Source: Naegleria gruberi
Taxonomy: Eukaryota
Strand: one strand, 5' to 3'
Assembly (NCBI GenBank): GCA_000004985.1
Contig: GG738858.1
DNA: 64,000 nt
Below are positions 12,691-64,000 of the stretch, piece by piece. Every line of letters starts with the position of its first letter. The stretch's first letter is position 1. The notes beneath the pieces are model-generated. The model had not been told where the DNA came from, searched no databases, and was given only the letters and a program-made list of their open reading frames with translations. The translations under genes and the position numbers were made by a program.

Positions 12691-15406
12691 ATGAGTAGTA
12701 GTAAGGATAATTCATTACCTGTTCGGGAGGAAGAAGAAATGATGAACATGGACCACGAAGATGATGATGAAGAAGATGAAGAAGAAGAAATGATGGACCC
12801 TAACACTGCAGCCCAACATCACTTGTACCAAATGCAAGCTATGCAACAAGCAGGATATCCAATGCCAACACATGGAGAGATGGACCCTAACACTGCTGCA
12901 GCCTATGGTGTACATCCAGGATATTCGGGAATGGATTACTCAGCAGCTGCAGCCTACGGTGTTGATTATCAAATGCAACAATTATATTATCAACAGAGTA
13001 TGCAACGTTTCCTATCTTCTCTTCCTCCTTCACAACAACAACAATACCTTGCTCAAATGCAACAACAACAGAGAAATCCACAAATGATGAAAGCCTATGC
13101 AACTTCGGCCGCTACTCAACAAAAGTATTCCACAGCATCAACACCTTCCGGTTATGTTGCTTCATCAAGTGTTGATCCATCTGTTGCTCCTCCTTCACCT
13201 GAAAATTCATCACTCACTCCAGAGGATGGTGGAAAGAAGAAGAGAGGTAGAAAGAATAATGCTGATGGTGAAGGTAAAAAAGGTGAAAAGGCTAGACAAC
13301 GTGCCGTCAGACATAACTGGACTCAAGCTCAAGATGATGCTCTCAAGAAGGCCATTAATTCACAACAATACAGCGAAAATGGTCAAAAGATTCGATGGAC
13401 AAAGATTTCACAAGAAGTTTTCGGAAGCAAATTAACACCACANNNNNNNNNNNNNNNNNNNNNNNNNNNNNNNNNNNNNNNNNNNNNNNNNNGCTGCATC
13501 TGCAACAGGTGGAACAACTACAGGAAGTAGTAGTGCAACAACTCCAACACCAACCAAGTCAAAAAAGAAGAAGGAAGCTGCTTCTGAAGATGCTGTAGAA
13601 GGTGAAGATGGCAAGAAAAAGAAGAGTAAGAAAAAGGCAACAACCACTAAGAAGAAGAAAAAGAAAAAGGGTGAAGAAGAAAGTGAACCTGAAGAGGAAG
13701 AAAGTGCAAAGAGGAAGAAACTTGAAGATGATTCAAGTACTAGAGGAAAGAATTATAGTAGAAGAAAGAGTGCAAATCCAAGAAAGGGAAATGTCAGCGT
13801 TATTTTCTCTTCTGAAACAGTTAGTGTTAAACAAGAATCAGATGTATCCATTGACCCTATTTTAGGAGCTGCTTCAAGTATTGAACATACTGAAACAGCA
13901 CTTTTTGGAGAAAAGAAGAGACCTAAGGTTTATCTTTCAAGAAAAGTTCCAAAGAAAAATAGAAATGCTAAATATATTAATGTGGATGATGTCATGAATC
14001 ACATCTATGAAACTAATCCTCAAGAGAAATATGTTTCAATTAGTATTAAGAGTGCTGATATTTTCCGTAATTTCCAACCTATTCCAAACCACCCACTCAA
14101 AGTTGATTGCCTTCTTGGTTTATATTTCGGTACCAATGAAAGAAATATTTGTCTTTCATCTTATAGAACCATGGTAGAAAATGAACAATTTGGTCAATTG
14201 GATGTTAGCTTCCCAACTAATTTGGTTTCTTTCTTCTCAAAGTGTAGACTGAGAAGAAATACTAAGAATTCTCTTTTCCTTTGTGTTGCTCTTAGACAAG
14301 CTGCTTTAGTTCAATCTCTTGATGATGATCCTAGTAGTCAAACCATCCCTCTTTACTGGGATAAGCACAATTATGGAGCAACCGTTTTCTCCTCCCATGC
14401 CTTTGTTGGTTTCTTCTCTGGGCAATATCCTGTCCAATTAAGAACAGCAACTGGAATTTTACTTCAATCTCCACTGACCATCAATGTTAAATTCTCTGAC
14501 TCAACAGATAAGTTGAGTGATTATCCTCTTGAACTTTCTAAGGTTCACTATAGAGAAGTTTCCAATCAATCCAATCTTGCTTCCACCTCTAATACTCAAA
14601 TTAATCCATTAATACTAGGTAGTGAAACTCTGGATCAAAAAGATGATATTCTCCAACTTCACTATATGGTGTATAAGGTCAACTACATAAATACTCATAA
14701 CAGAGGTGTAGAAAGACTTTGGCTACGCTGGGATATGAATTGTCCATTAGAAGATGATTTTGAAGTCAACAATATGATGATTATGGGAACAAACACAGAT
14801 GAAGATACCTTCGCTCAACTCAAGAAACATCTTACAGAAAAACATGGTGATAGATTTGAGATTCAATTTGAAGGTAGAGAAGGTGAAGGAGAAACTGGAT
14901 CATACATTATCAGCATGAATCAATACAAGCACTGGTATCAAAATTATCAATACATGGACAGAAAGAGATTGATGCTTTTGGATCCATCAACAATGGATGT
15001 CAATCAACTTACTCATATTCAAAAACAATTTATGGATGTTTGGAATAGTTATCTATTGGAAAATTTCAAATTATTAATGACAGAAAACGAAGCTCATGAT
15101 GCTTGCCGTAATCTTTACATTAATGAAAGATCCAAGTTGGATGCTGATGAAATGAAAGAAATTCTTGCCCATCAATTCTTAAGATTGACCAGTTTGAATG
15201 TAATATCTATTGAACATTTTATGAATCTTTTGGGAGAAGCTAAGATTCCACTTACCTCAGCCCTAGAACAACAATTACAACATATTCAACAAATGCAACA
15301 AATACAACAACAAACTATCAATCAGAATATGCAATATGCTCAAATGGTAAATCAGTTAAGTGATCAACAACCTGAAGAAGAGGAAGAGGATGAAGAAGAT
15401 GAATAA
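12691..15406 (+). CDS. Myb/SANT-domain protein with Q/M-rich N-terminus and large C-terminal domain; one CDS spanning an assembly gap (N run 13443..13492)
   Basis: The SANT/Myb helix is RHNWTQAQDDALKKAINSQQYSENGQKIRWTKISQEVFG. After the N-gap the same strand stays open with no stop from 13493 into ORF 13982..15406. The apparent frame change is caused by the arbitrary gap length. Confidence 0.55.
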
Positions 15407-27885: not shown

Positions 27886-30668
27886 ATGAGTGAACATCAA
27901 ATCTCCCTCAACAAAGAGACAGACATGGCTGTTGTTCGTTTGGATCAAATAAATGATCATTATTACAAGCTTTTCAATCTTAATGTTCCGAAGGATTTGG
28001 TGAATAACATCAAGAAGGCAATCGTTTCTCAAGATTTAGTTTGGATCATTGATAATGACGGAAAATTGTACGAGTGCAAATTTTCTGGTACCATGTCACC
28101 TTGTTATTGCAAGTTGTTTGATACTAGGGAAATTAATGAGCCAATTTTAGATATTGTTGGAAATGACAATCATTTATTTCTCACCACCAAATCACAAATG
28201 TATGGATTGGGGGTATGTTTTATGATCTATTGATATTAATTATTGATTTAGGGAAATGGATTTGGACAATTAGGATTAGGTAGTACAAAATTTAAAGAGT
28301 CTACTTGTCAACCAATAACCTTTTTCGATAGAATTAATGTAAATAGTAGCAAATATAAGGATAGAGTTGTGAAGATTGCTTGTGGAGAGGCATTTACTTT
28401 ATTCTTGACAAATACTAATAAGGTTTACAGTTGTGGAAGGTAAGAATTGAATATTTAACAACATAAGTCATTTTGAAAAGTAATTATTATGGACAACAGA
28501 CATTCCCTATGGAATCAGCTTTTCTTCCAACTCCTCAAAGAATTACTGAAATTTTCAAAGAAAATCAAAAAGTTGTTAACATTCATTGTGGCCAAACATA
28601 TTCTTTATTTGAGTTGGATGATGGATCATTTCTTTGCTATGGAAGATTGGGTAGTTTTTTGGTGAAAGATCCTAAAATTGTTCCAAAATTGCAAGAATTT
28701 GACAGGTTTGTGCTATTGAATTGATTTATTAACCATTTCAGTATTGAGTCTGTGTATTGTTTATCAGAACGGATTATTTTCATAACTAAATTCATGAAAA
28801 GAATTGATGTGGTGATTAAGACAATCTCTAAAGCAAATCAAGACAATTTTTTTGTTGTCCATTCTGTCAAGGAAGGTTCATTTCAATGTGTGGAGAAAAA
28901 CTCTCAAGAAATTATTTTGAACTGTAACGAGCAACACTTTAAATTATTTCACATTCAATATAAAGCTACCAATTCAGTTAAAGTCTACCAAGGTGATAAA
29001 TTAATCAGAACAATAACTATTAATTCAGATCCAAGTAGATTGAGGGTTTGTTTTACTTCTGGCGAAAACATTCTCATTTATATGAGCAACAGCACTTCAC
29101 AACGTAAAAAAACAATTCATGAATTGATTTTGGGAAAATCTAAAGAGTTCAAACTACCTTCTGATACAATTAATGTTGGATCCTCACCTGTTTATGCATT
29201 CCTTCCATTCATTCAAATTAGAAATCCTCAATTTTATGATTTACTTAGAACAGGTGATTTATTCACTTCGGATAGATCGCCAACCATTATTCAAGATTTG
29301 ATTGATTACTGTTTTTCACAAGACTGTTCATTCTTGAGAAGTTACACATCACCAATGGTTGCTGAGTTAATATACTTATTAGAGAAAATGGGTGTTATCT
29401 ACAATGAATTCACTGCTCCATTAATTTTTCAATCATCAGTACAAATTTCAGCTAGTGAAGATTTTGCTCCAAATGCTGATGCATACGTTGTGAAGCTAAA
29501 ACAAGAGGGAATTACCCCAAAGCTATTTGGTAATTCTCAATTTTTCAATAATCAAACGCCAGCTTATCTACCACCAATTGGTTCAGTTTTGGGTAAACTT
29601 TTTAACTCTGAATCATCAGCAGATACTTCTATAGTCATTGACCAGTTTGGATTGGAAAAAGTCAAATGCCACAGAAGTGTATTGATTGCACAAAGCACCT
29701 TTTTTGAGGCGTTCTATACTGGACATTTTGCTTCAAATGAAATCAATCTCTTCAATGACGAAGATACAGGAGAATTGGATATCAACACTGAGGATATGAG
29801 CGAAGAGGAGAGACAAATGCTGATAGACCCTGAATCTCAAATCAAAACCAGAGCATTGAGAAATATTTTAATGATGTTTTATGAAATTGAGCCAACTGTT
29901 GAGTATGAATTGGTAATTCCAATGCTAGACATGGCTCACAAATTAGATTCTGAGAATTTGGTTATGAAATGCTTGAATATGTTTGAAAATAATTTGGATG
30001 ATGAAAGCTATCAAGTTGTTAATCAGTGGCTGGGAGGTCTTGAACAAAAGACCGATATTCAAAATATGATTTTGAAGACTGCAGATACTTGGGCAAGTCA
30101 AGTATCTCAAAAAATAATACTATTCGAAAATTATGAATTGGAAGAAGAATTTGGTAAATATATTAGAAAACTTAATAATTTCGAAATTTGCCAAGAATTC
30201 ATTCCAAATTTTACAACTCACTATGTTGCAACTAAGCTTGACAAGAAGGATTACAATTTCCTATGTGCAGTAGCTGGTAATTGTAGTATTGTTAAACCTG
30301 AATATTTAAGAAAATGTGGAGAAGAGCAATGTTGGATTGAGGAAGGGCCATATCTTTTAAATAATTGTGCTAATGAATTTGAAAAAAAGGTTCAACTTCT
30401 CTTAAAGGTAAACATGGATAACAAGTTATTGAAGAAATTTGCCTTCTCTTCATATTGTGCACATATATTTTTNNNNNNNNNNNNNNNNNNNNNNNNNNNN
30501 NNNNNNNNNNNNNNNNNNNNNNATGTTGGTGTAAAATGTGAAAAGTATTACATTATTGACTACCACAATTTGGTGGATGTTTTACTTGGCAGTCAAGCAT
30601 CAAAATTCCATTTTGAAAAGAAACGTAAAAGAGAAGATCAAGATCAAAATAGATTTCATTTTTATTAG
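27886..30668 (+). CDS. RCC1-repeat plus BTB/POZ domain protein (RCBTB-like); join(27886..28212,28252..28439,28481..28705,28742..30668); contains N run 30473..30522
   Basis: The RCC1 blades read MYGLG|GNGFGQLGLGS...KIACGEAFTLFLTNTNKVYSCGR and NIHCGQTYSLFELDDGSFLCYGRLG. The BTB core is SIVIDQFGLEKVKCHRSVLIAQSTFFEAFYTGHF...LRNILMMFYEIE. The introns are 39, 41 and 36 nt, and all exons join in frame. Confidence 0.75.
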
Positions 30669-50668: not shown

Positions 50669-51455
50669 CTAATTTCTCCTAGTTGTTTGAGGTGAATCTG
50701 ATTTAATGATAATATCTTGAGCGTTTAAATAAGTAGACATTAACTTCTCAATGGATTCAGATTTGATATTTGCCACAATCTCATCAAACTCCAACTCGGG
50801 GCATACTTCTCCAAAATTTGCAAACCATGCAAGTATCCATTTATCTTCATCTTCTTTCCTATACAATACACTCTTCTCCGAAACATCAAAATTCAAATTT
50901 CCAATGTAATATTCATCAAGAATGAATAACTCTACAGAATTATCTCCAAATGGATATTCAATTGAATACTTTTCCATATTATTAATTTCCTTAGCAAGAT
51001 AACTCTCATATCTGTACTTGATTGTTATTGTTCCAGAAGTTGCCTCCTTTAATTGTATCGTTTTTTCATAGTCTCGAGATGTCTTTAATTCTTCTGCTTT
51101 TAATTTCAAACTTGCTTTTCCAATAGTATCCTTAATATTTAAGAATTAAATATATTATATAAATAATTCTTACATTCTTTGTGAATTTATCAAAATCAAA
51201 TACTGTAAATTTAATCTTAATTCCCTTTCCGTAATCATCAATCTTCGCCAACTCACTCTCAAAATCACAATTCCAGGTTGGATTAAGGCTCTTCATCACG
51301 ACTGGAGTTTTCCCTGAGAAGGCCAAAGCCTTGCAATCTCTTCCAATGATAGACACTTCCACAAATCCATCACTTGTTCCTCCTACATCCGATACCATCA
51401 AATTATTTCCTCTAATAACGGTCAAATGGAATGTGTCTTTACGATGAAATGGCAT
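50669..51455 (-). CDS. C2-domain protein; join(51455..51174,51130..50669)
   Basis: The C2 signature is HLTVIRGNNLMVSDVGGTSDGFVEVSI...LNPTWNCDFE...IKFTVFDFDKFTKN. The intron is 43 nt, GTAAGA..TATTAAG. Confidence 0.7.
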
Positions 51456-51537
51456 TTTTGTTTTTTAATTCTATTGTAATTATGTACATTATATTTAATA
51501 ATTTTGAAAACTTAATAGGAAAACAAATAGATCTCCA

Positions 51538-53166
51538 CTAATTTGATGTTCTCAATTTAAAATCACTAAAGTCAATACCCATAACACTATATCTAATCTT
51601 CTTAATGGTATCTTGATCTTTTGCTCCGTTAAGTGAGAAGAAACAATTATCCCTCAATCGACCATTCTCCTCAATTACTTCAACCTCTGTATCGCCAATC
51701 ACAACAAATGATCTGTCGAATGCTTTCAATAGCCAAAAATCTTGATTACCTTCAACAGTTTTGAAATATTCGAGTGAGTCGATAAAATTGCAAAATATGT
51801 TGAGTGATTTTCTATTCTTAAAAGTAGAGGAGTTCTTGTTGGTGTAATCATTGGAAATATTAGTCTTACTAATCATATCTCTCAAAATTTCAGAGAAATA
51901 GAATGTTCGGTCAACTTTTCCATTCCTTAAATTATCAAAATACTTGTCAAAGCATTCACTCTTTGGAAGTTGCAAATTCAAAGCAGATAGTACCTCAGAT
52001 GTGAAATGTTGGCAATTGGCTTTGAATTGGTGATATTGAACTGATCCATTATATTTACAAATAATTTCAGTCAACTTTCTAAATGTTTGCTTAACATTCT
52101 CAGCACCACGTATTTCTCCAATGTCAATTGCTGCAATTGTCTTGTCAGATTTGATTTGTTGAATAGAGTCACTCCTTACAATAACAGTTGATGAGTTGAA
52201 CCATTCAATCTTCCATTCACCAATTAAAAGGCCAGTATGAACAATTCCCATATCAGCATTTGAAAAGTAGCTCATTAACTTGGTCATAAAAGGACTATTA
52301 CCTAAATCAGAAATCAACAACTTGACTCGCAGAAATGGTTCACAATTAAGCTTCTTTGAATTTTGCTTAACAATAGAACTCATAAATTCCCTATTCAATA
52401 ATCTATCTTCACACACCAAGTTTTGAGCATCCACTTCCAAATCGCCTGTCATTCTAGCATCTTTGGGAGTTCTATTATTCTTTCTCAAGAAATCATAATA
52501 TTTCTCTAACTTTTTCTTGGCCATTCCAACTCGATCCTTTTCTAAAAGAGTTAATCTGTTTGCACTATATTGGACATCGGTTGTGGTTGGGTACGCAGTA
52601 GCATCAATAATAGCAGGTGTTGGAGAAATACTTGGCTTTGAGAAAAGTGTTTCATTGATTGATTCAAAAGTTTTGTTGGGTTTGTTCACTGGGTTGACAG
52701 AGGTAGAATTCTGGCCAGCTTGACCATCTGATTCCAAAGTATCTTCCGAGACATTTAGTACTAATCTATTCGAATCATCTTCAAACTTGACTCTTCCACT
52801 CTTTTCATCATCAATTTTCTTCTTCATGATAACTTGTTCCAAAAACACAATTGCAGAAATATTATCAATCTTGTACTTGGACATCTTTTGTTGCAACAGT
52901 TCCTTTTCTTGTTGAATTTTGGCATAATTAGTTTCCTTTGCCAACCCTTCGAATAACTTTCCATTAAAATCATTGTTCATTGTTACAGCATTTATGACAG
53001 TATCGTTCTTGAAATTGTAATGAATACATAAACAAAACAAGTCCCTATTGCTACATTCTCGAAGAGGTTTTGCCTCTGCCTCTTCAATCTCATCACTGGG
53101 TGGACTGATTTCTTCAGAGAATCTAATAATACTTGACGTGTTGCCCATTTTTTTAAATTGTATCAT
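51538..53166 (-). CDS. PPPDE/DeSI-type (Peptidase_C97) cysteine peptidase domain protein with ~170-aa conserved C-terminal extension
   Basis: The His motif is VHTGLLIGEWKIEW and the Cys motif is KANCQHFTSEVLSALNLQLP, matching DeSI-1 WHTGIVVH and [21 protein letters not shown]. A second ATG (MGNTSS, 53148) is a possible myristoylated start. Confidence 0.6.
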   Translation of the reverse strand: MIQFKKMGNTSSIIRFSEEISPPSDEIEEAEAKPLRECSNRDLFCLCIHYNFKNDTVINAVTMNNDFNGKLFEGLAKETNYAKIQQEKELLQQKMSKYKIDNISAIVFLEQVIMKKKIDDEKSGRVKFEDDSNRLVLNVSEDTLESDGQAGQNSTSVNPVNKPNKTFESINETLFSKPSISPTPAIIDATAYPTTTDVQYSANRLTLLEKDRVGMAKKKLEKYYDFLRKNNRTPKDARMTGDLEVDAQNLVCEDRLLNREFMSSIVKQNSKKLNCEPFLRVKLLISDLGNSPFMTKLMSYFSNADMGIVHTGLLIGEWKIEWFNSSTVIVRSDSIQQIKSDKTIAAIDIGEIRGAENVKQTFRKLTEIICKYNGSVQYHQFKANCQHFTSEVLSALNLQLPKSECFDKYFDNLRNGKVDRTFYFSEILRDMISKTNISNDYTNKNSSTFKNRKSLNIFCNFIDSLEYFKTVEGNQDFWLLKAFDRSFVVIGDTEVEVIEENGRLRDNCFFSLNGAKDQDTIKKIRYSVMGIDFSDFKLRTSN

Positions 53167-53317
53167 GTATTTTGATCATCTGCTGTCTTTTTCACGTTTT
53201 GGAAACGTGATCGGACCTTTTGAAGCATTGTAATGAACAATTTTGTCTGATAAGAAGAAAATTCCAATCGAGAAGTTTGGGACTCAATTCTTTAATGGCA
53301 TGGTTAAGTAATTGAAT

Positions 53318-53322
53318 AAAAA
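53318..53322 (-). terminator. pol III T5 terminator immediately 3' of the 5S gene
   Basis: AAAAA on +, that is TTTTT on the gene strand, directly after the 5S 3' end. Confidence 0.6.
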
Positions 53323-53440
53323 GACTACAGCACCACAGGTTCCCAAGTTGTCTCCAACCTCAGTACTGATGTGGCTCGACGATGCTTAACTTCTCAAATC
53401 GGACGGGATGAGGTGCATTCATCGTGATATGGCCGTAGCC
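53323..53440 (-). rRNA. 5S ribosomal RNA, 118 nt
   Basis: The minus-strand sequence is GGCTACGGCCATATCACGATGAATGCACCTCATCCCGTCCGATTTGAGAAGTTAAGCATCGTCGAGCCACATCAGTACTGAGGTTGGAGACAACTTGGGAACCTGTGGTGCTGTAGTC. The universal eukaryotic 5S blocks are present, and helix I closes with 9 bp. It is followed by T5. Confidence 0.85.
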
Positions 53441-53553
53441 ATTCACATTCTTAAAAAGTTATTCATAAACAACTACCTTAATGATTAAATTAAGAAATTG
53501 GTTAAATCAATGCAAAAGGAATATAAGTTGAAAACGATTTCAATTGTTAATTT

Positions 53554-53599
53554 GGACGGGAAGCCTGCCAGGAATATGGCGACAATCCCGCTACAGTCT
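53554..53599 (-). pseudogene. degenerate 5S-like remnant upstream of the 5S gene
   Basis: The minus-strand GACTGTAGC-GGGATTGTC-GCCATAT-TCCTGGCAGGC-TTCCCGTCCA resembles a 5S 3' end (GCTGTAG) abutting a 5S 5' portion (GCCATAT..TCCCGTCCGA). Confidence 0.35.
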
Positions 53600-54187
53600 T
53601 TGACTGTATGAACAGTGAAGTCAAGAGTTCTTGGACGAATCTTGTTTGTTCAGGTTATTGAAGAAAGTAAAAAGGTCGATCACTCTTCTACTTATTGATC
53701 ATTTGATATGATGAATTGTTCCATGAAAATTGTTGAATTAAATAGAGGTCACTATTTTCCCTTCCATTTATATATTCTTCATCATGATCCTTAATAAAAT
53801 CTATTAAACCGTCACGAATGTTTAAAAATACATCTGCCTCATACCATGATAAGCAAATATTTCCATGTTGTTTTTCAATATAATATGATATTTGATTTGA
53901 AATTATTTCAAATTGATAAAGAAATACAAGCATATCAATATTTTAATCTTTAACTTGACATGATAAAATAGACTTGTTAAAAAAATCAAATCATATATTG
54001 GCGAAGGTTCTTCCTCATCAATATATTTTATTAACAAAGATTCAACTTTAATTTGTAATATTGTAAGTCTTATCACCTTAATATCTGAATGAGAAATATT
54101 ATTATCTATAACAAATTCTTAATACAATTATTCTTTTATCACCAAAGTAATTGAGCAATTGTTGAAAGAGTAAATAACAATCATTTA

Positions 54188-54670
54188 TTACCTCTTTAAT
54201 ACACAATCACTGAAATCAACATCTTTAACACTGTACTTGATATGAGTGATGGAATCTTGATCTCTTCCTCCATTAGTTGTGAAGAATCCATTCTCTTTGA
54301 CTCCTGTAGAATCAAAAGTAAGACAAATTTCATCCTCCCCAACCAAAACAAATGACCTATCAAATGCCTTCAAAAGCCAAAAATCACTTTGACCTGCCTC
54401 AATGTCAAAATATTTGATATGTTCAAGAAAATGACAAAATTCATCCAATGATTTTCTATTCTCGAATCTAATGTTCTTCAAACCAATATAAGGGTTTGTA
54501 ATGTTGCATGTTTTAAATAATGTTGCCAAATTTTCATTCACAAAGAAAGTTCTGTCAGTTTCTCCTCTTTTCAATTTGTCAAAATAAATTTTGAAAGATT
54601 CACTCACTGGAAGTGTCAAATTCAATGCCTCTAATAAATCTGAAACGAAATGTTGGCAATTAGCCCCCAA
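54188..54670 (-). pseudogene. N-terminally truncated paralogue of the PPPDE-domain gene (Cys-motif half plus conserved C-terminal extension only)
   Basis: ANCQHFVSDLLEALNLTLP...FWLLKAFDRSFV...IKYSVKDVDFSD aligns along the last ~160 aa of 51538..53166. An in-frame TAA lies directly upstream, and no plausible intron is found. Confidence 0.5.
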
Positions 54671-54782
54671 TAATGAATAATCTTAGTAATACCGTTTCAG
54701 TTTTACCTAGTTGTAATAAACACCGGAAATTTATTTATGATTTTAACAATAAAAGCTGAAAGTAGTTAAATGATGATATTTG

Positions 54783-54784
<2 letters not shown>

Positions 54785-54818
<34 letters not shown>
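54785..54818. repeat. (AT)17 microsatellite
   Basis: atatat... run. Confidence 0.9.
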
Positions 54819-54821
<3 letters not shown>

Positions 54822-54962
54822 AATTGATGTTAGATATTAGTTGTTCCATTTATTTTTAAACTACTCCATCAACCTCCATGAATCTAGTTGTCTATTTCTT
54901 GTTGTAAGAGTTTTTCTTTGTTTTAATTAACAACTATCACAACTCTACTTTTACTACTTCTA

Positions 54963-55067
54963 ATGTTCTTATCGAAGTTTACTGAGATAAAGTAGTGTTT
55001 CTTGAAAACAACAATTGAATAAACTAATAATAGAAAGTATGCTCAAAAAAATTGTCATACTATGGTC
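54963..55067 (+). repeat. split direct repeat A1 (105 bp; contains gag ATG at 55062)
   Basis: Identical copy at 58999..59103. Confidence 0.85.
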
Positions 55068-56189
55068 GCTAAGAAGCCTCAAGATATTGACTCCTCTTCA
55101 TCTGATGAAGATCTCCCAGCAGTTGAAGTAGAATACCCCACAACACCAGTGAAAGCAAGAAAACAACAAGCTGCTAAGAAGCTTAGAAAGTTAAAGGCCA
55201 TGTCACCTGTAGCTAATAGAAATAAGCGCAAACAATCTACTTCAGTTTCATCATCTAACAGTGCCTTAGATGATGGTATTTCAACTGTTGTTTCCAGTTC
55301 GTTGCTAAGCAATTCAACTTTGTTGGATAGTTCTTCAACTGCACCCTCTTCGTCAAACAATTCGTCTTCTTCCAATTCAGGTAGAGATAGTTTTGCCAGT
55401 AGTTCATCTGAACATGATATCATGGCGATCAAAGCCCAAATGCAAGAAATGATTGGAGTTTTGAGAACCGTAACAGGAAATATCTCTGAACTTACTAAGA
55501 AAGTTCAGGAGAGAGAAGAAGAATCAGATGATGATTTTGTTAATCCAGAAGCTATATCTCCAGAAGTTTGGTTACGTCAAACTTATAGAGACCTTAGAAG
55601 TTCTTACAATGTTCCTTCATCTATTGGAGATGATTTATTACTTTCTGCAGTATCCTCCGAGATACTTAAAGACCGTAAACAAGAGGAGACCAAGAGAAGA
55701 ATTCAATATTTGCTCCTTAAATACAAGGATGTGATTTCCAAGTTTGCCCCAGACATTAGATTGGATGAGATTAACAGTATTGGTTATTCTAAACTAGTAG
55801 AGTTAACTCAAATCAAAATTGAATTGTTGGAATATGCATTGAATTCTCCACTTGATTTTACAGTCATGACAGAGATTACAGAACTTTGTAGAATGATTTG
55901 CAAAGTTGAAGCCCTCTTCCTTAAAGAAGGTTTACAAGTTTCCACTTTCGATGTTGGTAGAGAATTCCTTAACAGATACATTTCTACTAATAGTTTCGAA
56001 ACTGCTGCCGAAAGTGAACTTCATAATATTAGAACAACATATCATTACTACAAAGCAACCAAGCAGCAACAAGGTCCAAAGGGAATTACCAAGAAGTATT
56101 CTAAGAAGAAACCGTTTCAAAAGAAAAACAATAAGGGTCAAGGAAACGGTGGTAAATTCCAAGGAAAAGATAAGGATAAGTCAGAATGA
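55062..56189 (+). CDS. retroelement ORF1, gag-like (S-rich N-terminus, basic KKNNKGQGNGGKFQGKDKDK tail)
   Basis: The first ORF after A1 starts on the ATG inside the repeat. It overlaps the pol frame by ~280 nt. Confidence 0.65.
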   Translation: MVAKKPQDIDSSSSDEDLPAVEVEYPTTPVKARKQQAAKKLRKLKAMSPVANRNKRKQSTSVSSSNSALDDGISTVVSSSLLSNSTLLDSSSTAPSSSNNSSSSNSGRDSFASSSSEHDIMAIKAQMQEMIGVLRTVTGNISELTKKVQEREEESDDDFVNPEAISPEVWLRQTYRDLRSSYNVPSSIGDDLLLSAVSSEILKDRKQEETKRRIQYLLLKYKDVISKFAPDIRLDEINSIGYSKLVELTQIKIELLEYALNSPLDFTVMTEITELCRMICKVEALFLKEGLQVSTFDVGREFLNRYISTNSFETAAESELHNIRTTYHYYKATKQQQGPKGITKKYSKKKPFQKKNNKGQGNGGKFQGKDKDKSE

Positions 56190-58062
56190 CTCTTCCACTC
56201 CCTCCTTCCAAGGAGGAAGATTACAACAGTTTTGGAAAAAGTGGCAAATCTTCCCCAAAACTGTTGCAGAATGGATAAGAGAGGGTATTCCAATCCATTC
56301 AGAAAAAGAAAAATGGATCGATATTCCACTAAGATCTCATTTTTCAGAAAAGGAAGATTCATGGTTAAAGAGCGAAATCTCAGATTTACTCAAAACCAAT
56401 ATTATAGAAATTGGAAACAAGGACACTGTCATAAATCCGATTCACGTGGTTCCGAAGAAAGGCAAAGACCAGTTTCGTCTAATCCTAGATTTGAGATCCA
56501 TAAATGCTGGTATAAACAACGACTCATTCAAAATGGATCATATTCACAAAACTCTAAAGTTTCTATCAAAAGACATGTTAGGAATCAAAATAGATTTGAT
56601 GAAAGGTTATCATCACGTTCCAGTGAAGGAAACAGATCGAAAGTTATTGGGATTCAGGTACAACGGCCAGATTTACCATTACAAGTGCCTACCATTCGGT
56701 CTGAACATTGCTCCAAGATTATTCTCCAAGATAATGAAGGTCTTAGTTCAAAGATGGAGAGTAAGAGGAATCTCGGTATTCATTTATTTAGACGATATCT
56801 TAGTGGTAAATCATTCAAAAGATCAGTTGATCTTAGACAGAGATATAGTTCTAAAGGATTTAGAAGAGTTTGGATTCCTCATTCAAAAAGACAAATGTTG
56901 TTTAAATCCAACTCAATTAATAGAATACCTAGGAGTTTTGTTAGACTTTCATCAAGGTTTGGTAAAAATTCCAGAAGACAAAAGGATTACAGCTTTAGAA
57001 TTCATAGAGGAGCTACTCAATGCTTCCCAGAAACGGCTTTATGTTCCATGCAAGAGAGTTGCCAAGTTCCTAGGAAAGTTGGAATTTCTAACAATTGCCA
57101 ACAAGTACCTTTCACCATTCATGTGTCGTCTTCGAAAGAACATGGTTTCAGTAGTATCAGGAAGAGGTTGGCACGCATCAATGCAAATTCACAAAGGCGC
57201 ATTCAAGGATTTATTGATTCTAAGGGAGTTAATTCAAAAGAACGATGGTCATCCGTTCGAATTGGATTGGATTCTCCCAGTGATTGTGAATTCAGATGCA
57301 ACACCTCAAGGTTTCGGCATTCACTCAGGTTCAATCGTTACTGTTGGAAAGTTCAATGGAGAAGAGCACATCAATGTCAAGGAACTAAGAGCCTTACTGC
57401 TTTATTTCAAACAAGCAGACGAATTAAATCTTTATCCAGATTTCACAAATTTCGAATTGAGAGTAGACAACATGGTAGCCGTGGCATATCTAAAGAAGGG
57501 TTATGGATCAAAAGACGATCTCGCAAAGATAGCAAGAGACATCTCAAAGATTCTAATGAGAAGAAATTGGTGGATTTGCAAAGTGATTTACATCCCATCC
57601 AAACAGAATTTCCTAGCAGACAGGTTGAGTCGATTGATGGATTGGGGATCCACCAAGGAACTAATCGAATTAGTCAACCAAGAATTTGGAATACACCATG
57701 TGGACAGATTTGCAACAACGAGTTCGGCAACTACCCTTGTATTCAATTCATGGAAAGAGAACGACGCGTTCAAAAGTCTTTGGGAAAAAGAACTAGTGAG
57801 TTATTGTGTTCCTCCAATAGGATTGATCAGTCAAGCTCTCATTCATCTTATCAAATCCAGATCAATAGCGACATTTGTAATTCCAGAATGGAGCTCCTCG
57901 ATTTGGTGGCCTCTACTCTTAAAGCTATTAAAGAAGAGAAAAAGTATCACAAGAAGGATGCTTTTAATCAAACTATTATCCGAATTATGGATCAAATTCG
58001 AAGGAACGACGTTCATAATTGCTCATCTGGATGGAAACTTATACTTCAAACCAGAGATTTAG
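55906..58062 (+). CDS. retroelement ORF2, reverse transcriptase/RNase H (pol)
   Basis: The RT motifs are LDLRSIN, FGLNIAPRLF and VFIYLDDILVV. The RNase H end reads IPSKQNFLADRLSR. The frame overlaps the end of gag, so the true pol start is probably upstream of the first ATG, via frameshift. Confidence 0.75.
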   Translation: MKPSSLKKVYKFPLSMLVENSLTDTFLLIVSKLLPKVNFIILEQHIITTKQPSSNKVQRELPRSILRRNRFKRKTIRVKETVVNSKEKIRISQNDSSTPSFQGGRLQQFWKKWQIFPKTVAEWIREGIPIHSEKEKWIDIPLRSHFSEKEDSWLKSEISDLLKTNIIEIGNKDTVINPIHVVPKKGKDQFRLILDLRSINAGINNDSFKMDHIHKTLKFLSKDMLGIKIDLMKGYHHVPVKETDRKLLGFRYNGQIYHYKCLPFGLNIAPRLFSKIMKVLVQRWRVRGISVFIYLDDILVVNHSKDQLILDRDIVLKDLEEFGFLIQKDKCCLNPTQLIEYLGVLLDFHQGLVKIPEDKRITALEFIEELLNASQKRLYVPCKRVAKFLGKLEFLTIANKYLSPFMCRLRKNMVSVVSGRGWHASMQIHKGAFKDLLILRELIQKNDGHPFELDWILPVIVNSDATPQGFGIHSGSIVTVGKFNGEEHINVKELRALLLYFKQADELNLYPDFTNFELRVDNMVAVAYLKKGYGSKDDLAKIARDISKILMRRNWWICKVIYIPSKQNFLADRLSRLMDWGSTKELIELVNQEFGIHHVDRFATTSSATTLVFNSWKENDAFKSLWEKELVSYCVPPIGLISQALIHLIKSRSIATFVIPEWSSSIWWPLLLKLLKKRKSITRRMLLIKLLSELWIKFEGTTFIIAHLDGNLYFKPEI

Positions 58063-58967
58063 GGATGTTGGTTTCGATTAAGGAAGAAACCTTCAAACTT
58101 TACACTAGAAACTATAATGGTTTCTTATGGTTTATTACTGCATTCAATATTTCAATGGATGACCCTTATGCTATTGAGTATTATGCAGCTTATCTTACAA
58201 TTCAAGGTCAAACATCTCGTGTTGAAGCCTTGAGACCATCCCTTCAATTTTGGGCCAATATTGAGAGAAGAGTTTTTCCAATTTCATGGTCTTATGATAA
58301 GATTAAAAGAGGAATTACTCTTATTTGGTCCTTGATTGATAGAAAAGCTTTGAAACGTGATCCAATTTTCTATCATCATATTGAAGGTTTCATTCAGAGA
58401 AAAGATCATTATGATCCTTTCATTTTCAAACTCACTAGTGCCATGTTAGTCATTGGTTTCAGACTTTTCGCTAGACCAGGTGAATTAGCTAGACTCAAGT
58501 GGGGTTATGTTACAAAGCTTAGAAATGGTAACATCAAATTAGATCTCAGTGGTCACAAAACAGATTTCTTTCTACTAGAAAAGCCGATTACTATTGACAA
58601 GCATCTTGAAAATCCTTCAGTGTGTCCAGTGAAATTGCTTTTTGATTACATAGACACTGTACAGCATTTCAAAAAAGCAGATTCACCATTGTTTTCATTG
58701 CAGGACAATATTTTCTTCAACACTGAAGATGTTTCTCAACTTATCAAGAATGCTATGTTCTCTGTTGATTCAGAAATCACTGTTTCTGGTCACAGTTTAC
58801 GTATTGGTGCAACTACTGAGAGTATTATCAAGGGAATTCCTACTCAGGATATTATTATGGGGACTAGACATAAGGATGTGAAATCTTTACAACCTTATCA
58901 AAGACAAGAAGCTCTTGCAGCTCGCCACTTGTCTACTACTCTCCTTTCTCGGGACAATATCCATTAG
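56232..58967 (+). CDS. retroelement ORF3: 911-codon frame overlapping pol, C-terminal 300 aa (58065..58967) is the tyrosine recombinase
   Basis: The YR box I/II reads ARPGELARLKWGYV...GHKTD...HSLRIGATTE...GTRHKDVKSLQPYQR. The upstream ~610 codons are a basic R/S/K-rich frame with no stop, although they overlap pol in AT-rich DNA. Confidence 0.6.
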   Translation: MEKVANLPQNCCRMDKRGYSNPFRKRKMDRYSTKISFFRKGRFMVKERNLRFTQNQYYRNWKQGHCHKSDSRGSEERQRPVSSNPRFEIHKCWYKQRLIQNGSYSQNSKVSIKRHVRNQNRFDERLSSRSSEGNRSKVIGIQVQRPDLPLQVPTIRSEHCSKIILQDNEGLSSKMESKRNLGIHLFRRYLSGKSFKRSVDLRQRYSSKGFRRVWIPHSKRQMLFKSNSINRIPRSFVRLSSRFGKNSRRQKDYSFRIHRGATQCFPETALCSMQESCQVPRKVGISNNCQQVPFTIHVSSSKEHGFSSIRKRLARINANSQRRIQGFIDSKGVNSKERWSSVRIGLDSPSDCEFRCNTSRFRHSLRFNRYCWKVQWRRAHQCQGTKSLTALFQTSRRIKSLSRFHKFRIESRQHGSRGISKEGLWIKRRSRKDSKRHLKDSNEKKLVDLQSDLHPIQTEFPSRQVESIDGLGIHQGTNRISQPRIWNTPCGQICNNEFGNYPCIQFMERERRVQKSLGKRTSELLCSSNRIDQSSSHSSYQIQINSDICNSRMELLDLVASTLKAIKEEKKYHKKDAFNQTIIRIMDQIRRNDVHNCSSGWKLILQTRDLGMLVSIKEETFKLYTRNYNGFLWFITAFNISMDDPYAIEYYAAYLTIQGQTSRVEALRPSLQFWANIERRVFPISWSYDKIKRGITLIWSLIDRKALKRDPIFYHHIEGFIQRKDHYDPFIFKLTSAMLVIGFRLFARPGELARLKWGYVTKLRNGNIKLDLSGHKTDFFLLEKPITIDKHLENPSVCPVKLLFDYIDTVQHFKKADSPLFSLQDNIFFNTEDVSQLIKNAMFSVDSEITVSGHSLRIGATTESIIKGIPTQDIIMGTRHKDVKSLQPYQRQEALAARHLSTTLLSRDNIH

Positions 58968-59000
58968 TTTATTTATTGTTGGTTTTCTTTTAAGAAACAT
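58957..59000 (+). repeat. split direct repeat B1 (44 bp)
   Basis: Identical copy at 59778..59821. Confidence 0.8.
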
Positions 59001-59103
59001 GTTCTTATCGAAGTTTACTGAGATAAAGTAGTGTTTCTTGAAAACAACAATTGAATAAACTAATAATAGAAAGTATGCTCAAAAAAATTGTCATACTATG
59101 GTC
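58999..59103 (+). repeat. split direct repeat A2
   Basis: Identical to A1. Confidence 0.85.
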
Positions 59104-59777
59104 CCACCCTTGCCCACCCTCTATTATTATTAGTTTATTCAAATCAAAGGTTCTAACCTTTGTCCTTAATACTTTGGAATGTGATTTTTTAACCAATCCT
59201 CAAATATTTTCTCAATTGATTGAAAGATTTCACTCTATTTGTATTATTGAAAGATGATTGTTATCATCTTTTTATCTTTGTATTATTATTTGATATTTGA
59301 CATCATTTATTGATGTTTTTTATCATGATTGGTGATCTAAAACCAATTGTTGGTGATCTAAAACCGACAGATCAACTTTATGTTGATTAGAAGGTATCTG
59401 ATACCTTTCCCTTACTATTAGTAAGGCAATATGTACTGAACATACCTCTTTTCTCATTCTCGTTTTGATTCGTAAGTGTCAAGACGGTTGAGTAGGTTTT
59501 TTAATTCTTAACTTTTTAGTTTTTACCGATTTTTTTTTTTTTTCCTACAAGAGTAGGTTTTTTTATATGGGAGTTGTTTCTCCAAAAAACAACTTGGTTT
59601 ATTGTCAGATTGCTTTAATTTAGTTTAGTTTTTGCTTTTTGTTAAGAAATCATAGTATGATTGTATTGATTAGTTTATTTAATTTCTGGACCTGCTGAAT
59701 AAAGCTTAATGCCTAAAAACAGCAGTAACCAGGCTACAAACTACCTAAGAATAGGTAGAAGTTGTAGTGTGAGCTTT

Positions 59778-59821
59778 ATATCCATTAGTTTATTTATTGT
59801 TGGTTTTCTTTTAAGAAACAT
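59778..59821 (+). repeat. split direct repeat B2
   Basis: Identical to B1. Confidence 0.8.
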
Positions 59822-59878
59822 ATCAACTGATGGGTAAAAACCACAAACAAACCAACTAGCTGTGACCTTTCAAAAAAA

Positions 59879-61813
59879 ATGCAAAGACCAAACATTTCAC
59901 AGGATTTAGAGTCTCACATTTCCAGCAGCACATCAACAGCTTCATTTTCCAACTTACCTTACGTTAATTCAGAGAAACATCTAATCAAGTCAAATGTCAA
60001 TGGCAAGTCAAGATGTAATTTACCTACAATTCTCTTACTATTATTCATCCTCACAAGTTTGGTGATGATTTTTTATTTGACGTCCAAGCGAGGAGTAAGA
60101 GGAGAAGCCAGAGTATTCCCTGTCACTTATCTAGATGTCGATTTCACAAATTCTGAAAATTTAAAACTCAACCGAGTGAGAGGTCTTTGTAAAATATTCT
60201 TATCAACCTATTATTTGTTTAATTATAATGAAAAATCACCTAATTATGTTCCACCAACAGTTATTGGTGCTGACGGTGCTCCTGAAGCAAAATATAGTAA
60301 GTTTGATGGTTGGCATTTAATTAGTGAAAATTGACATGTGAAATGTAAAGCTCATTGGAAGAAGATTGAGAGGACTTTTCAATTTTTATCGGGTGGAGAG
60401 TCTAACTATATTGATGATCATGATATTATTGTTTTCAGTGATGCAACAGATGTTTTATTCATCAATAATATTGAAAATGTCAAGAAAGTATACGAAACTT
60501 ACTATATCAAGGAAATTGCTAATATTGATTTGAAAGATAGTGAGAGAGATTGGCCTATTGTGTTTATTGCTGAAAAGAATAAGTGGCCACCAAATGATTT
60601 CATTCAAAATATGTTTACAGTAAGTGTTTCTAATAGAATTTACTAATTTTCTCGATTCATACTCTAGGAAGATTGTCATAATTATGTGGGGGTGGGTGGG
60701 TCGTGAAAAAAGGATGTCCATAATTACGTGGTCCAGAGTGGGTCAGAAAGTAGAGCAGAGCAAAAAACAAAAATTGGCAAAAGTAGAGCCGAAGGTTTAT
60801 TAGCCAAGAGTGAGACAGTGTTCAAAGTATCAATTATCACTTGTTCTGCTAGCAACAAGTACTTCTGGGTTCTTGATTGTTTGTGTACCAACAACTTTGG
60901 GCAGGCATTCATCTAGATTGTTATGGTTGAATGTGCTATGGCTGATGTGGAAGGAAGCAAAGGGAGAACTCTCCTCCTGGTACTGATGAAGGTTGGTAGT
61001 TAGCAGGGTGATGAAATCATGAGTAATTGTTGTTTGTTGTTTTTTTTTGTTGAATATAACGGTCAGAACATTCAACTTTCAGCGGTAACATGTTTGGTAG
61101 TGTGAAAAAACTCACATGCAGTGGCCAGGATTTGTTGGGACGATCTTACAGTGAGGTTGGGTGGGTCAAAAAGTGAGGGTCGTAATGACAATCTTCCCTA
61201 TTAGAAAACACCTGAGGAGGAGAATATGGTCGAAAAATACTACTATGACATTAATGGCTATAGAGTTAAGAGAAATTGTGCATCAGCAAATGATAGAATT
61301 TATTTAAATAGTGGACTTTACGTTGGAAGAAAACGTGATATTAGAAAGGCACTTTCCATTGGATTGAATGTGAAAAGAGGTGAACCAAAGGAAAGAATTG
61401 AAGATCAAGCGCTATTCCAATACATTTATGCCACCAATAAGTATCCAATTCTTATGGATTGTGAAAAGAAAATGTTTTACAGTCCATTCTCAGCTTGTGA
61501 TACAATTGTTAGTGAGGAAGAGAAGAAGTGGTCGTGTTCTATTCGTGATGGTCAGGAGGAGACACCAGATAGTGTTGTCTACGTTCATTCAAATGGTGGA
61601 TTTTGTTATTCACTTTGTAATTGTTTCACTTCAATGAAACAAAAAGGAATGTTCAAGAATTTAATGGAACAGTATCAGGACAAGTTGAGTTTCAAGTCGT
61701 ATGATATTAATTCTAGAAAAGTGAGAAGTGTTTTGATGAAATATGCTTGTGGACACTTTGTTGATGAAGATTTCGCTTTGGATTCATGTAATACTCAACC
61801 TCCTCCTGCTTAG
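59879..61813 (+). CDS. type-II membrane GT-A glycosyltransferase, PLOD/LH3-GT-like; join(59879..60619,61205..61813) with an in-frame TGA at 60335..60337
   Basis: The TM anchor is LPTILLLLFILTSLVMIFYL. KAHWKKIERTF..HDIIVFSDATDVLF..PIVFIAEKNKWP..RIYLNSGLYVG..VVYVHSNGG is colinear with the PLOD3 GT domain QKVRWLKKEM..DMIIMFVDSYDVIL..RLLFSAESFCWP..RFLNSGGFIGF..VVHGNG. The 585-nt intron 60620..61204 contains the MITE-like element. Confidence 0.65.
60667..61197. mobile_element. 531-bp non-autonomous TIR element (MITE-like) with 13-bp terminal inverted repeats and 3-bp CTA target-site duplication
   Basis: The left end is GGAAGATTGTCAT (60667..60679). The right end is ATGACAATCTTCC (61185..61197). 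CTA flanks both sides (60664..60666 and 61198..61200). Internally GGGTGGGTC/AAAAAG motifs repeat, and there is no coding capacity. Confidence 0.6.
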
Positions 61814-61839
61814 ATAAAAAGATTTGTTTGATAAAAGGA

Positions 61840-61928
61840 AGGGTGGTACGTGGATCGAACACGTGACCATCGGATGTCTCCTGCAATTAACTTTGCAATC
61901 CGGTGCTCTACCGCTGAGCTAACCGCCC
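61840..61928 (-). tRNA. tRNA-Cys (anticodon GCA) with 17-nt intron after position 37
   Basis: The minus-strand sequence is GGGCGGT-TA-GCTC-AGCGGTA-GAGC-A-CCGGA-TTGCAA[AGTTAATTGCAGGAGAC]A-TCCGA-TGGTC-ACGTG-TTCGATC-CACGT-ACCACCC-T. The intron contains AATTGCA complementary to the anticodon loop. There are C4-A69 and C27-A43 mismatches. Confidence 0.7.
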
Positions 61929-62242
61929 TTGTGTTGCAGTCATAAAATATTAACTTATTGCTGTTAGCATTTATTAAGGTTAAATTGTATTGATGAACAA
62001 TTTATTGTGCTCCCTATGATTTTTCTTCTTGTTAACCATCATTCTCACTATTTTCCCAATCATATTGAGCTAGTAATTCTGTAATCTTTTCGTGTAATTA
62101 AAAAATTAGGAAAAGCTATCATCACACCATGCCATGGATGGCTGGCCTGTTTATCAGGAGGAATCAGTAATTCCTTTATTCACAGAGGCACCACTCTGGT
62201 CCAACTCTGCTGATAGTAATAAAGAATAAGAAAAAAGGTTAG

Positions 62243-62315
62243 CTCCCCCTGGTGGGCTCGAACCACCGACCTGCAGATTAACAGTCTGACGCTCTACCGA
62301 CTGAGCTAAGGGGGA
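62243..62315 (-). tRNA. tRNA-Asn (anticodon GTT), 73 nt
   Basis: The minus-strand sequence is TCCCCCT-TA-GCTC-AGTCGGTA-GAGC-G-TCAGA-CTGTTAA-TCTGC-AGGTC-GGTGG-TTCGAGC-CCACC-AGGGGGA-G. A T6 run lies directly downstream on the gene strand. Confidence 0.85.
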
Positions 62316-62375
62316 TATATCGTTCCAAAAAATTTTATCATTAAAAGCCAAATTATATTAAGGAACCTTTTTTAT

Positions 62376-62750
62376 TCACAACAAGGAAGCCAAACAAGCC
62401 CTATTAATTCTCTGATTATTTCTAGCAAATGTTGATTCTTCATAAAGCTTGCTATTCTTATCAGCTCCACTCAACGTAAAATCAGATTGTTTAGCTAAAA
62501 ATTCAACAAAAGCTTCCTCACTAGCAAACTTTTCAATCGGATCAAAATCACATCCATCATTACAATAAGCCAATACATATTCCGAATTTTCATAAAACAA
62601 CGCCAATCCACAATAATCACGATGATTATTAACAATGTTCTTTCCGGAAACCAAAGCTTTTGCAACTTTAAGAGCAAATTCACTTCCGTATTCAACATTG
62701 GAGAGTTGGGCAATTCTCTCATCAGAGCACCAAGCATGTTCGTTCGTCAT
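62376..62750 (-). CDS. hypothetical protein, 124 aa, ATG start
   Basis: ORF only (MTNEHAWCSDERIAQLSNVEYGSE...). No domain recognised. Confidence 0.3.
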   Translation of the reverse strand: MTNEHAWCSDERIAQLSNVEYGSEFALKVAKALVSGKNIVNNHRDYCGLALFYENSEYVLAYCNDGCDFDPIEKFASEEAFVEFLAKQSDFTLSGADKNSKLYEESTFARNNQRINRACLASLL

Positions 62751-63854
62751 TTTTTTTCTTTAATTGAAGTGGTTGTAAGTACTAAATGTTGATGTATTTT
62801 TTTTAAAGTTCCTAAGGTAAAGTTGCGCAAACATTTTAAATACCTTTTTAAGGTGAGAAGTTCAAATATAGAATTTTTATTGGGAAAGGAAAATTTAATG
62901 AGAAGTGAAATTGGTTGATGATTTATGTAACTTTGAGAAGAATTTTTTCTCAACGAGTAAACTATCTTTTAGACCCTTTATGTTACAGGAAGAGTTCCAA
63001 AAGTTCCAAGAATTTCATCCATGTGCTTTTTTACAATTTGATATATGTCAACAAGAGCTGAAATTACCAATTCGACTGTTTTCGTACAAAGCAAAATGGG
63101 GGGTTCCAGAACCTTCTATTGGTGGTTCCAATGTAAAGTTTTGAATTCTGGAAATCTCTTAATAAAACCTCTCAATTTCTTAAAATCTTACAACCAAACT
63201 TTGCTTTTCGTTTATTATCATGCATGAGATTGAAGGATAGAATACCAGAATTTCATTAATTAATCATGATTACACTCACGATCACAAATTCGTTCAATAC
63301 AATCAGATGTTGATCATGTGTTAGCCATGATGGTGATTAATCATGCCCGATCTCGATTCTTTAATCAAAATTCTGACCCGTATCATGTTAGTAAGGTTAT
63401 GCTGTGGTGTTGAATAGTAACCATTACCTGCTGTTGAGGAATCGAATCGTGTATAATAAGGTATAGAAAGCCACAAGAGAAGTTATGTTGAATTCATTAG
63501 TAATATTACTAATAATAATATTAATGTATTGTCAAGTTGTAACTCTTTGATTTGTTTCATTATTGGAAACTCTCTAGAATTAATAAAAGGTCCTTGATTC
63601 TACTTCTTCAGTAAACTCAATAGGGAAATAATGGCCTTATTTGTTTTGGTTGTTGGACCCAAATTTCAATTCATCAATAACATTAGTAGGAACCAACATC
63701 TTGGAGAAGAATTTCAACAATATGAAAGCATGAAAGTTCTGAATTGAAAATATGAGATCTTATCGGATAGATAATGCAGAACTTTACTGAACTCGTTCAT
63801 TTCAAGTAACGAAACTGACTGTTGACAGGGTTTAGTCTGTTAAAAAAAAAGAAC

Positions 63855-63951
63855 ATGCTCAAGAATACATTGGCTCTATCAGGCGTTGAATTTGATGATG
63901 AAGATCCAGTGTTAGATAGTGAGAACCCTAAAATTCTCTTGTTGGGATCAA
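63855..63951 (+). CDS. first exon of a gene running off the window (MLKNTLALSGVEFDDEDPVLDSENPKILLLGSS, then GTAAGT donor)
   Basis: ATG plus a 32-codon ORF ending at a consensus GTAAGT. A possible P-loop GTPase start (KILLLGSS). Confidence 0.3.
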
Positions 63952-64000
63952 GTAAGTTCTTGTACATTCGCATACAATAAACGAAAGTTCAGATGATTGT

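Follow-up and report, generated by a model that had tools for sequence, protein, structure and literature searches.

In a 64,000-nucleotide stretch of Naegleria gruberi DNA (contig GG738858.1 of assembly GCA_000004985.1; the whole stretch is hereafter the window), two tandem sequences related to the PPPDE/DeSI-type peptidases lie on the minus strand. The first, copy 1, is an intact gene which, as shown by residue conservation and a predicted structure, has a core of the PPPDE fold in which the catalytic centre is intact, and a co-conserved extension at its C-terminus; the best explanation is that it is functional and belongs to a family that has expanded in Heterolobosea (Naegleria, Willaertia, Acrasis). 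The second, copy 2, is best explained, from its sequence, as a non-functional 3' gene fragment. Taken jointly, the identity of the family as PPPDE/DeSI-fold cysteine hydrolases and the fragment status of copy 2 are, in our judgement, probable.

Understanding of PPPDE-fold enzymes is poor, and even the role of the human ones is in dispute, between that of deSUMOylases and that of S-depalmitoylases. Naegleria, a genus that includes the pathogen N. fowleri, holds together with Willaertia and Acrasis a large, diversified set of PPPDE-fold proteins with a conserved extra lobe and membrane-targeting features. The extra lobe, together with the MG starts and the PX, SAM and kinase partners described below, makes this family a natural place to study substrate choice in the PPPDE fold.

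Gene structure of copy 1

The coding sequence of copy 1 occupies positions 51538..53148 on the minus strand and, on the basis of its open reading frame (ORF) and of the alignment with homologues, is intact and intronless, with 536 amino acids (aa) from MGNTSS. The ORF itself spans 51538..53166(-) and has 542 aa when counted from an upstream ATG at 53166, the count used for residue numbers below; this ORF and that of copy 2 were found, on the minus strand, at the coordinates given by an earlier reading of the letters alone (the original prediction). The second ATG, at 53148, is most likely the start codon, because the homologues from N. fowleri (P0003, 544 aa) and N. lovaniensis (P0004, 519 aa), both single-ORF proteins that align with copy 1 from end to end and stop at the same place, begin with MGQS. 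The layout of copy 1 is an MG start of the myristoylation type, then an N-terminal region that is helical and variable, and then a globular unit of ~340 aa that is conserved; within this unit the two originally predicted motifs were confirmed, HTGLLIGEW at aa 310-318 and ANCQHF at aa 383-388.

The N. gruberi protein P0001 ('predicted protein [Naegleria gruberi]', 679 aa) is identical to copy 1 from MGNTSS over its residues 1-~471. Beyond ~471 this model leaves out copy 1's final ~65 codons along with its natural stop and splices into the neighbouring C2-domain gene (ORFs 51132-51455 and 50669-51109; C2 match with E 1e-13). P0001 (window 50669-53148, minus strand) looks like a chimera. Copy 1 and the C2-domain gene are probably two genes, 82 bp apart, to judge from sequence comparison, because in N. 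fowleri and N. lovaniensis the homologous proteins stop where copy 1 itself stops.

Catalytic core and fold

Residues 200-542, modelled with AlphaFold2 from an alignment of 35 sequences, formed a single compact body with a predicted local distance difference test score (pLDDT) of 92.6 and a predicted template modelling score (pTM) of 0.91. It consists of four N-terminal helices (~205-270), a core of beta-sheet and Cys-helix (278-395) and a tail (397-542). The permuted papain (PPPDE) core, aa 278-395, is encoded at 51982..52335(-). It is preceded by a layer of N-terminal helices in the globular unit (aa ~205-277; 52336..52554, minus strand), which carries a conserved AQNxVCxDRF, is kept within the closest subfamily, and has the helices H8-30, H35-38, H44-52 and H54-69 in the model (block pLDDT 92-98). 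When the model was compared with the Protein Data Bank (PDB) by Foldseek, only human PPPDE1 (3ebq) and 2wp7 were returned, both with a probability of 1.00, and PPPDE structures were the best match in both fold searches that were made. The fold is papain-like (NlpC/P60) and circularly permuted, with the His strand placed before the Cys helix.

The alignment of the family hidden Markov model (HMM) with 2wp7 set GlfHT on GIWHT and tY..kcNCqhF on AYNLFEHNCNTF, and thereby picked out His310 (52237-52239), Tyr378 (52033-52035) and Cys385 (52012-52014; all on the minus strand) as the catalytic centre of copy 1. Across ~145 family sequences H310 is conserved in 97%, Y378 in 99%, N384 in 99% and C385 in 95%. 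This is the His-Tyr-Cys centre of PPPDE1, whose triad is H38/Y101/C108 (PMC9012467), and the spacing of seven residues between Tyr and Cys is the same in both proteins.

The PPPDE identity of copy 1 rests mainly on this predicted fold and on the triad, and the sequence profiles weigh against it. Pfam Peptidase_C97 (PF05903) scored 24.8 bits on copy 1 (E 2e-5), short of the gathering score of 29.2; among the relatives it scored 19.8 bits on P0007 and had no match on most others, and a PDB sequence search with the family profile gave an E-value of just 0.48. The PPPDE catalytic dyad of the original prediction is thus upheld in its fold and triad, with a Pfam score that stays below the threshold.

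An alternative is that the family is not PPPDE-like in function and acts on membrane lipids as an LRAT/PLAAT-type lipid acyltransferase or phospholipase. Weak matches to Pfam LRAT (E 0.07 for copy 1, E 0.006 for P0010), the membrane-targeting features of the family (MG starts, PX partners) and the resemblance of NCxHF to the NCEHF motif generally known from the LRAT family speak for such lipid enzymes. However, no significant profile match to LRAT/PLAAT (PF04970) was obtained and LRAT/PLAAT was not the best structural match; Pfam PPPDE scores better than Pfam LRAT, PPPDE structures lead in the fold searches, and the distance of seven residues from Tyr to Cys fits PPPDE1. We regard a lipid-modifying family as improbable and keep to the PPPDE assignment.

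C-terminal extension

Secondary structure, pLDDT and conservation together delimit a family-specific C-terminal extension at aa 397-542 (51541..51978, minus strand), which consists, in order, of a helix, a strand, a helix, a strand, two helices, a beta-hairpin and a tail. Its residues F449 (98%), L480 (99%), K481 (95%), D484 (98%), R485 (97%) and F487 (95%) are conserved across the ~145 sequences to the same degree as the active site, and FWLLKAFDRSFV was found in both copies of the window. The extension had no consistent Pfam match, no PDB sequence match and no PDB fold match, and when it was modelled alone a fold search gave no match to CLN5.

The original prediction had described a C-terminal part of ~170 aa that matches no recognised domain and forms a module of its own. 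The lack of a recognised domain agrees with these searches; the length beyond the Pfam PPPDE match is nearer to 146 aa, and the separable module was not borne out. Judged by family sequences and the structural model, the tail is a family-specific extension of the catalytic domain and not a free-standing domain, since the His half accompanies it in all family sequences that are long enough and since the model predicts tail and core to share a single globule.

The family and its distribution

The heterolobosean PPPDE-like family, as defined in this analysis (it is not a Pfam entry), combines the core with an extension that bears the LLKAFDRxF motif (F449, L480-K481, D484-R485, F487), and both are found in copy 1. 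A profile that covered the Cys motif and tail only, built from five relatives, retrieved 142 representatives of 50%-identity clusters at the cut-off of E<=1e-3, and 30 at 1e-10. About 25 of the 142 match the whole tail, and the others match profile positions 1-110, from NCQHF through LLKAFDRSF. On re-scoring of the 142 with a catalytic-plus-tail profile, the His half was present in every sequence long enough to hold it, and among these representatives the tail was never seen alone or joined to another domain.

Members that carry a name are confined to N. gruberi, N. fowleri, N. lovaniensis, Willaertia magna and Acrasis kona, the rest being metagenome, Logan and MMETSP sequences; UniProt already labels several members from the three Naegleria species 'PPPDE domain-containing protein'. 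The N-terminal partners differ and comprise an MG-start helical leader, SAM, PX, or kinase+SAM. An MG start is present in 38 family sequences, mostly with Ser or Thr near position 6, which is the pattern of N-myristoylation. In a few family members, P0014 and P0020, the catalytic Cys is lost (NNQKF, NSIHF) and the tail motif retained, and from these sequences they are possible pseudoenzymes.

The closest N. lovaniensis homologue is flanked by unrelated genes (D123, BBE, pentapeptide), and no other ORF of the window has a match at that locus. A second, more diverged paralogue was observed in N. lovaniensis L001 (PYSW02000036.1) at 2740-3723(+), with a tblastn E of 9e-30 to copy 1; it lies 6 kb upstream of P0004, so the family also forms nearby duplicates in N. 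lovaniensis. The gene model around it has a chromate-transporter domain in its annotation and may likewise be a merged one.

The family is a lineage-specific, elaborated PPPDE family that would merit a family model of its own. We further propose, tentatively and at rather less than even odds, that helices, core and extension make up a distinct, undescribed enzyme family largely confined to Heterolobosea and uncultured relatives, in which the extension with LLKAFDRxF would serve as a substrate-binding lobe of membrane-anchored enzymes with a specificity unlike that of DeSI or CLN5. If so, the family could form, for example, a lineage-specific system of protein deacylation or of removal of ubiquitin-like proteins (Ubl) tied to SAM, PX or kinase modules.

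The truncated second copy

Copy 2 is located ~1 kb upstream of copy 1 and comprises 164 codons and a stop (54188..54682, minus strand), equivalent to residues 730-893 of the N. gruberi protein P0002, that is, to the triad Tyr, the Cys motif and the whole tail. By BLASTP it is identical to the last 157 residues of copy 1 at 77/157 positions (49%; E 5e-52), and tblastn gave E 6e-45. The recurrence over the Cys motif and tail that had been called almost residue-for-residue is significant, at an identity of 49%.

Homology to a full-length relative starts at the codon GAT TAT (54682), which includes the triad Tyr, and the in-frame TAA that had been predicted ahead of this ORF stands immediately upstream. 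The catalytic His strand is missing, and the frame has no Met codon; the 'TTG start' given in the ORF list is a convention of the tool. No His half of the second copy was found in the 64-kb window by tblastn with copy 1, P0005 and P0002 or by the family HMM (--max, six frames), and these searches recovered only the two known loci. The truncation to Cys half and tail, not translatable by itself, thereby holds as originally described, and the upstream His exon that would have spoken against it was looked for across the window in all frames and not found. An AG dinucleotide (ctaAG|AT) does coincide exactly with the homology boundary, and its phase would allow the Asn codon to be rebuilt; the original statement that no usable splice site exists was in this respect too strong, and stands in that the window has no upstream exon to join. 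An intron at the break, which would fit in phase, was considered and rejected on that ground.

Two further N. gruberi models carry related sequence. P0002, an 893-aa model on a 10,074-bp scaffold, contains a kinase domain, a copy-1-like unit (copy 1') and a complete copy 2, which is the last gene on that scaffold. The copy-1-like unit is 84% identical to copy 1 over aa 205-448 and ends after GKVDR. P0002 is probably two or three adjacent genes merged, and part of the fusion could be real, a kinase+SAM+PPPDE-like architecture occurring in P0115. The window fragment is identical to the last 160 residues of P0002 at 159/160 positions (BLASTP), and tblastn of residues 730-893 against window 54682-54191 gave 98.8%. 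P0005, a partial 370-aa model from a 2,199-bp contig, represents the 5' half of a gene of the copy-2 type and includes the MG start, the leader and the His strand. Its sequence runs to ...NATKNY, after which come eight divergent residues, and NATKNY marks the codon at which the homology in the window begins; the divergent tail, LSSTVWWF, was not found in the six frames of the window. Three reference gene models need correction at these loci, namely the fusion of copy 1 with the C2-domain gene in P0001, the fusion of kinase, copy 1' and copy 2, and the unannotated copy-2 fragment.

Copy 2 might instead be the last exon of a functional gene whose other exons lie outside the window or are supplied in trans, or an expressed regulatory protein made of the Cys half only. 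The frame is open over its 164 codons, and the AG at the boundary would restore the Asn codon in phase. However, the open frame is accounted for by the 99% identity to an intact paralogue. A last exon is moreover hard to accept where the frame lacks a Met codon, where no homologous exon occurs in any frame within 9.3 kb upstream, where a retroelement, other ORFs and tRNA genes come in between, and where the full-length relatives (copy 1 and the N. lovaniensis gene) are single uninterrupted ORFs. We hold this to be highly improbable and retain the reading of copy 2 as a 3' gene fragment.

Origin of the truncation

Between the homology break and a retroelement lies an AT-rich stretch of 280 bp (54683..54962), which contains (AT)17 at 54785-54818. 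In blastn-short searches it showed no partner in the window apart from chance 11-14-mers, and no terminal inverted repeat; a search for repeats near the break found only those of the retroelement and an AT palindrome. The retroelement is a DIRS-like tyrosine-recombinase element at 54963..59821(+), recognised by its split direct repeats and domain matches. Repeat A1 (54963-55067) equals A2 (58999-59103; 105 nt), and B1 (58957-59000) equals B2 (59778-59821; 44 nt), both pairs with 100% identity. B1 and A2 are contiguous and copy the joined ends, and the bounds of the element are therefore fixed at 54963..59821. It has the reverse transcriptase (RT; RVT_1, 4.8e-26), methyltransferase-like region (Dam-like, 9e-4) and tyrosine recombinase (Phage_integrase, 2e-4) of DIRS-like elements, together with joined terminal repeat ends that are copied internally. 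Its open frames are a gag-like one (55062-56189), one for RT with the Dam-like region (55906-58062) and one for the tyrosine recombinase, which extends to 58967. With its identical split repeats and long open frames the element looks young and possibly active.

Both the tyrosine-recombinase retroelement and the (AT)17 repeat had been predicted near copy 2, and both are there. The missing 5' part, which had been expected at their site, is not: the end of the element is 280 bp from the break (~54683), and its far flank (59822-64000) holds unrelated ORFs and tRNA genes and not the missing half. A simple insertion of the retroelement into copy 2 is not supported.

That the element caused the truncation in some way, by inserting into copy 2 or by an associated deletion or recombination that removed the 5' half, draws on its being the nearest large insertion to the break and on its apparent youth, its repeats being 100% identical and the fragment being young too. 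Against this, the B1A2 junction sets its termini exactly, and they do not touch the fragment; past its other end the sequence has no trace of the missing half; and the 280 bp in between are neither gene nor element. We consider such a role of the element quite improbable. There remain a breakpoint in copy 2 from a rearrangement or deletion, a structural variant in the heterozygous state, or a mis-join in the assembly. The near-identity of the fragment to the 3' end of an intact paralogue means that the truncation happened very recently, is allelic, or was produced by rearrangement or assembly.

A rival reading takes the truncation as an artefact of assembly or haplotype. The real copy 2 would then be intact beside the 5S ribosomal RNA (rRNA) gene and copy 1, the scaffold of 10 kb with kinase, copy 1' and copy 2 and the contig of 2.2 kb with the 5' half would be pieces of this locus that are unplaced or stem from an alternative haplotype, and the join at ~54683 would be a mis-join or a structural variant of one haplotype. 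The gene order fits, copy 2 being last on the P0002 scaffold and its tail being followed in the window by the 5S gene and copy 1, and the tails of window and P0002 differ at one of 160 positions. The 2.2-kb contig stops within eight codons of the same break, as assembly breaks at repeats or at heterozygous indels typically do, and just past the break come the low-complexity (AT)17 and a multi-copy retroelement. On the other hand, there is no N gap near the break, the only N runs of the window being at 13443-13492 and 30473-30522; the 280 bp at the break are unique within the window; the scaffold runs on through the retroelement into unique genes; and P0005 differs by 6% from P0002, so that the 5' half exists in two or more versions. 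An artefact is on balance unlikely, although a serious contender.

Two points count against the account of copy 2 given here. P0005 is 94% and the window fragment 99% identical to P0002 (Fisher p = 0.03), and from these identities P0005 and the fragment may not be reciprocal halves of one allele. The comparison of the break with the P0002 and P0005 scaffolds was made at the protein level, at which a real rearrangement and haplotype or assembly effects are not separable. In itself the fragment is an ordinary piece of a gene, and it matters only as a marker of recent structural change or of an assembly problem at this locus.

Proposed function

From the MGNTSS start of copy 1 and the MG start in 38 family sequences, copy 1 would be N-myristoylated. 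At the membrane it might act as a thioesterase or deacylase (S-depalmitoylase-like, cf. PPPDE1/2 and CLN5) or as an isopeptidase of ubiquitin-like proteins. Cys385 would be the nucleophile on the thioester or isopeptide bond of the substrate, with His310 as the general base and Tyr378 as the polar third residue, and the extension could be a substrate-binding or regulatory lobe. S-depalmitoylase activity has been described for PPPDE1/2 and CLN5 (PMC9012467). For the specific class of substrate and for what the extension does, our confidence is lower than for the family identity, somewhat below or about an even chance. Three points temper this proposal: the MGxxx(S/T) pattern is the single feature that suggests N-myristoylation; the substrate class (acyl-thioester, SUMO/Ubl or lipid) is suggested by analogy with relatives only; and the role of the extension is suggested by its conservation and predicted compactness.

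Other features of the window

The window is AT-rich (~33% G+C). The 5S rRNA gene that had been predicted beside copy 2 was located between the two copies (53322..53440, minus strand), 174 bp upstream of the copy 1 start codon; its full-length Rfam RF00001 match, over model positions 1-120, scored 105.4 bits, the gathering score being 38. Between copy 2 and the 5S gene, at 53688-54076(-), are two small overlapping ORFs of 81 and 57 aa without a Pfam match. Past the retroelement, the ORFs at 59879-60646 and 61226-61813(+) include a weak match to a PLOD-type glycosyltransferase (GT_PLOD-like, E 1e-3) and are probably one intron-containing gene unrelated to the PPPDE copies. An 89-nt tRNA at 61840-61928(-) was detected by Rfam (50.4 bits), was not reported by ARAGORN, and may contain an intron; it adjoins a tRNA-Asn at 62242-62315, and a tRNA-Arg is found at 1065-1137. 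The two N runs named above are of 50 Ns each and are scaffold gaps.

Comparison with known systems

Copy 2 resembles the truncated paralogue fragments found beside transposable elements in being a partial ORF without start codon or His half, with an intact near-identical paralogue and in a repeat-rich spot. Unlike these, its retroelement does not abut the break, and a target-site duplication and a reciprocal half are not demonstrable within the window.

Among the possible relatives of copy 1, LRAT/PLAAT (H-RAS-like suppressor) proteins and bacterial NlpC/P60 hydrolases such as TseH (6v98) match more poorly than PPPDE; they have no significant sequence matches to copy 1, and their accessory elements differ. 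CLN5 is a lysosomal luminal glycoprotein. Its structure (PDB 6r99) is similar to copy 1 in having a PPPDE-like core inside a larger protein with added elements, and it is likewise based on cysteine, as an S-depalmitoylase; in contrast to copy 1 as predicted here it is not N-myristoylated, and the two share 12% identity without a match at the sequence level. CLN5 nevertheless provides a precedent for PPPDE-fold enzymes that act on acyl thioesters (PMC9012467). Within the shared superfamily, LRAT/PLAAT and CLN5 stand further from copy 1 than DeSI does, and the N-terminal helices and the extension are absent from DeSI, LRAT/PLAAT and CLN5 alike.

The closest known systems are DeSI-1 and DeSI-2 (PPPDE2 and PPPDE1; Peptidase_C97, MEROPS C97; PDB 2wp7 and 3ebq), which share with copy 1 the His-Tyr-Cys centre with identical Tyr-to-Cys spacing and the HTG and NC-x-HF motifs in register, and of which ~110-140 residues superpose at 18-22% identity. 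Copy 1 differs from them in its myristoylation-type N-terminus and long variable leader, and the Naegleria unit, at ~340 aa against ~150 in DeSI, adds to the common core four N-terminal helices and the 146-aa extension with its near-invariant LLKAFDRxF.

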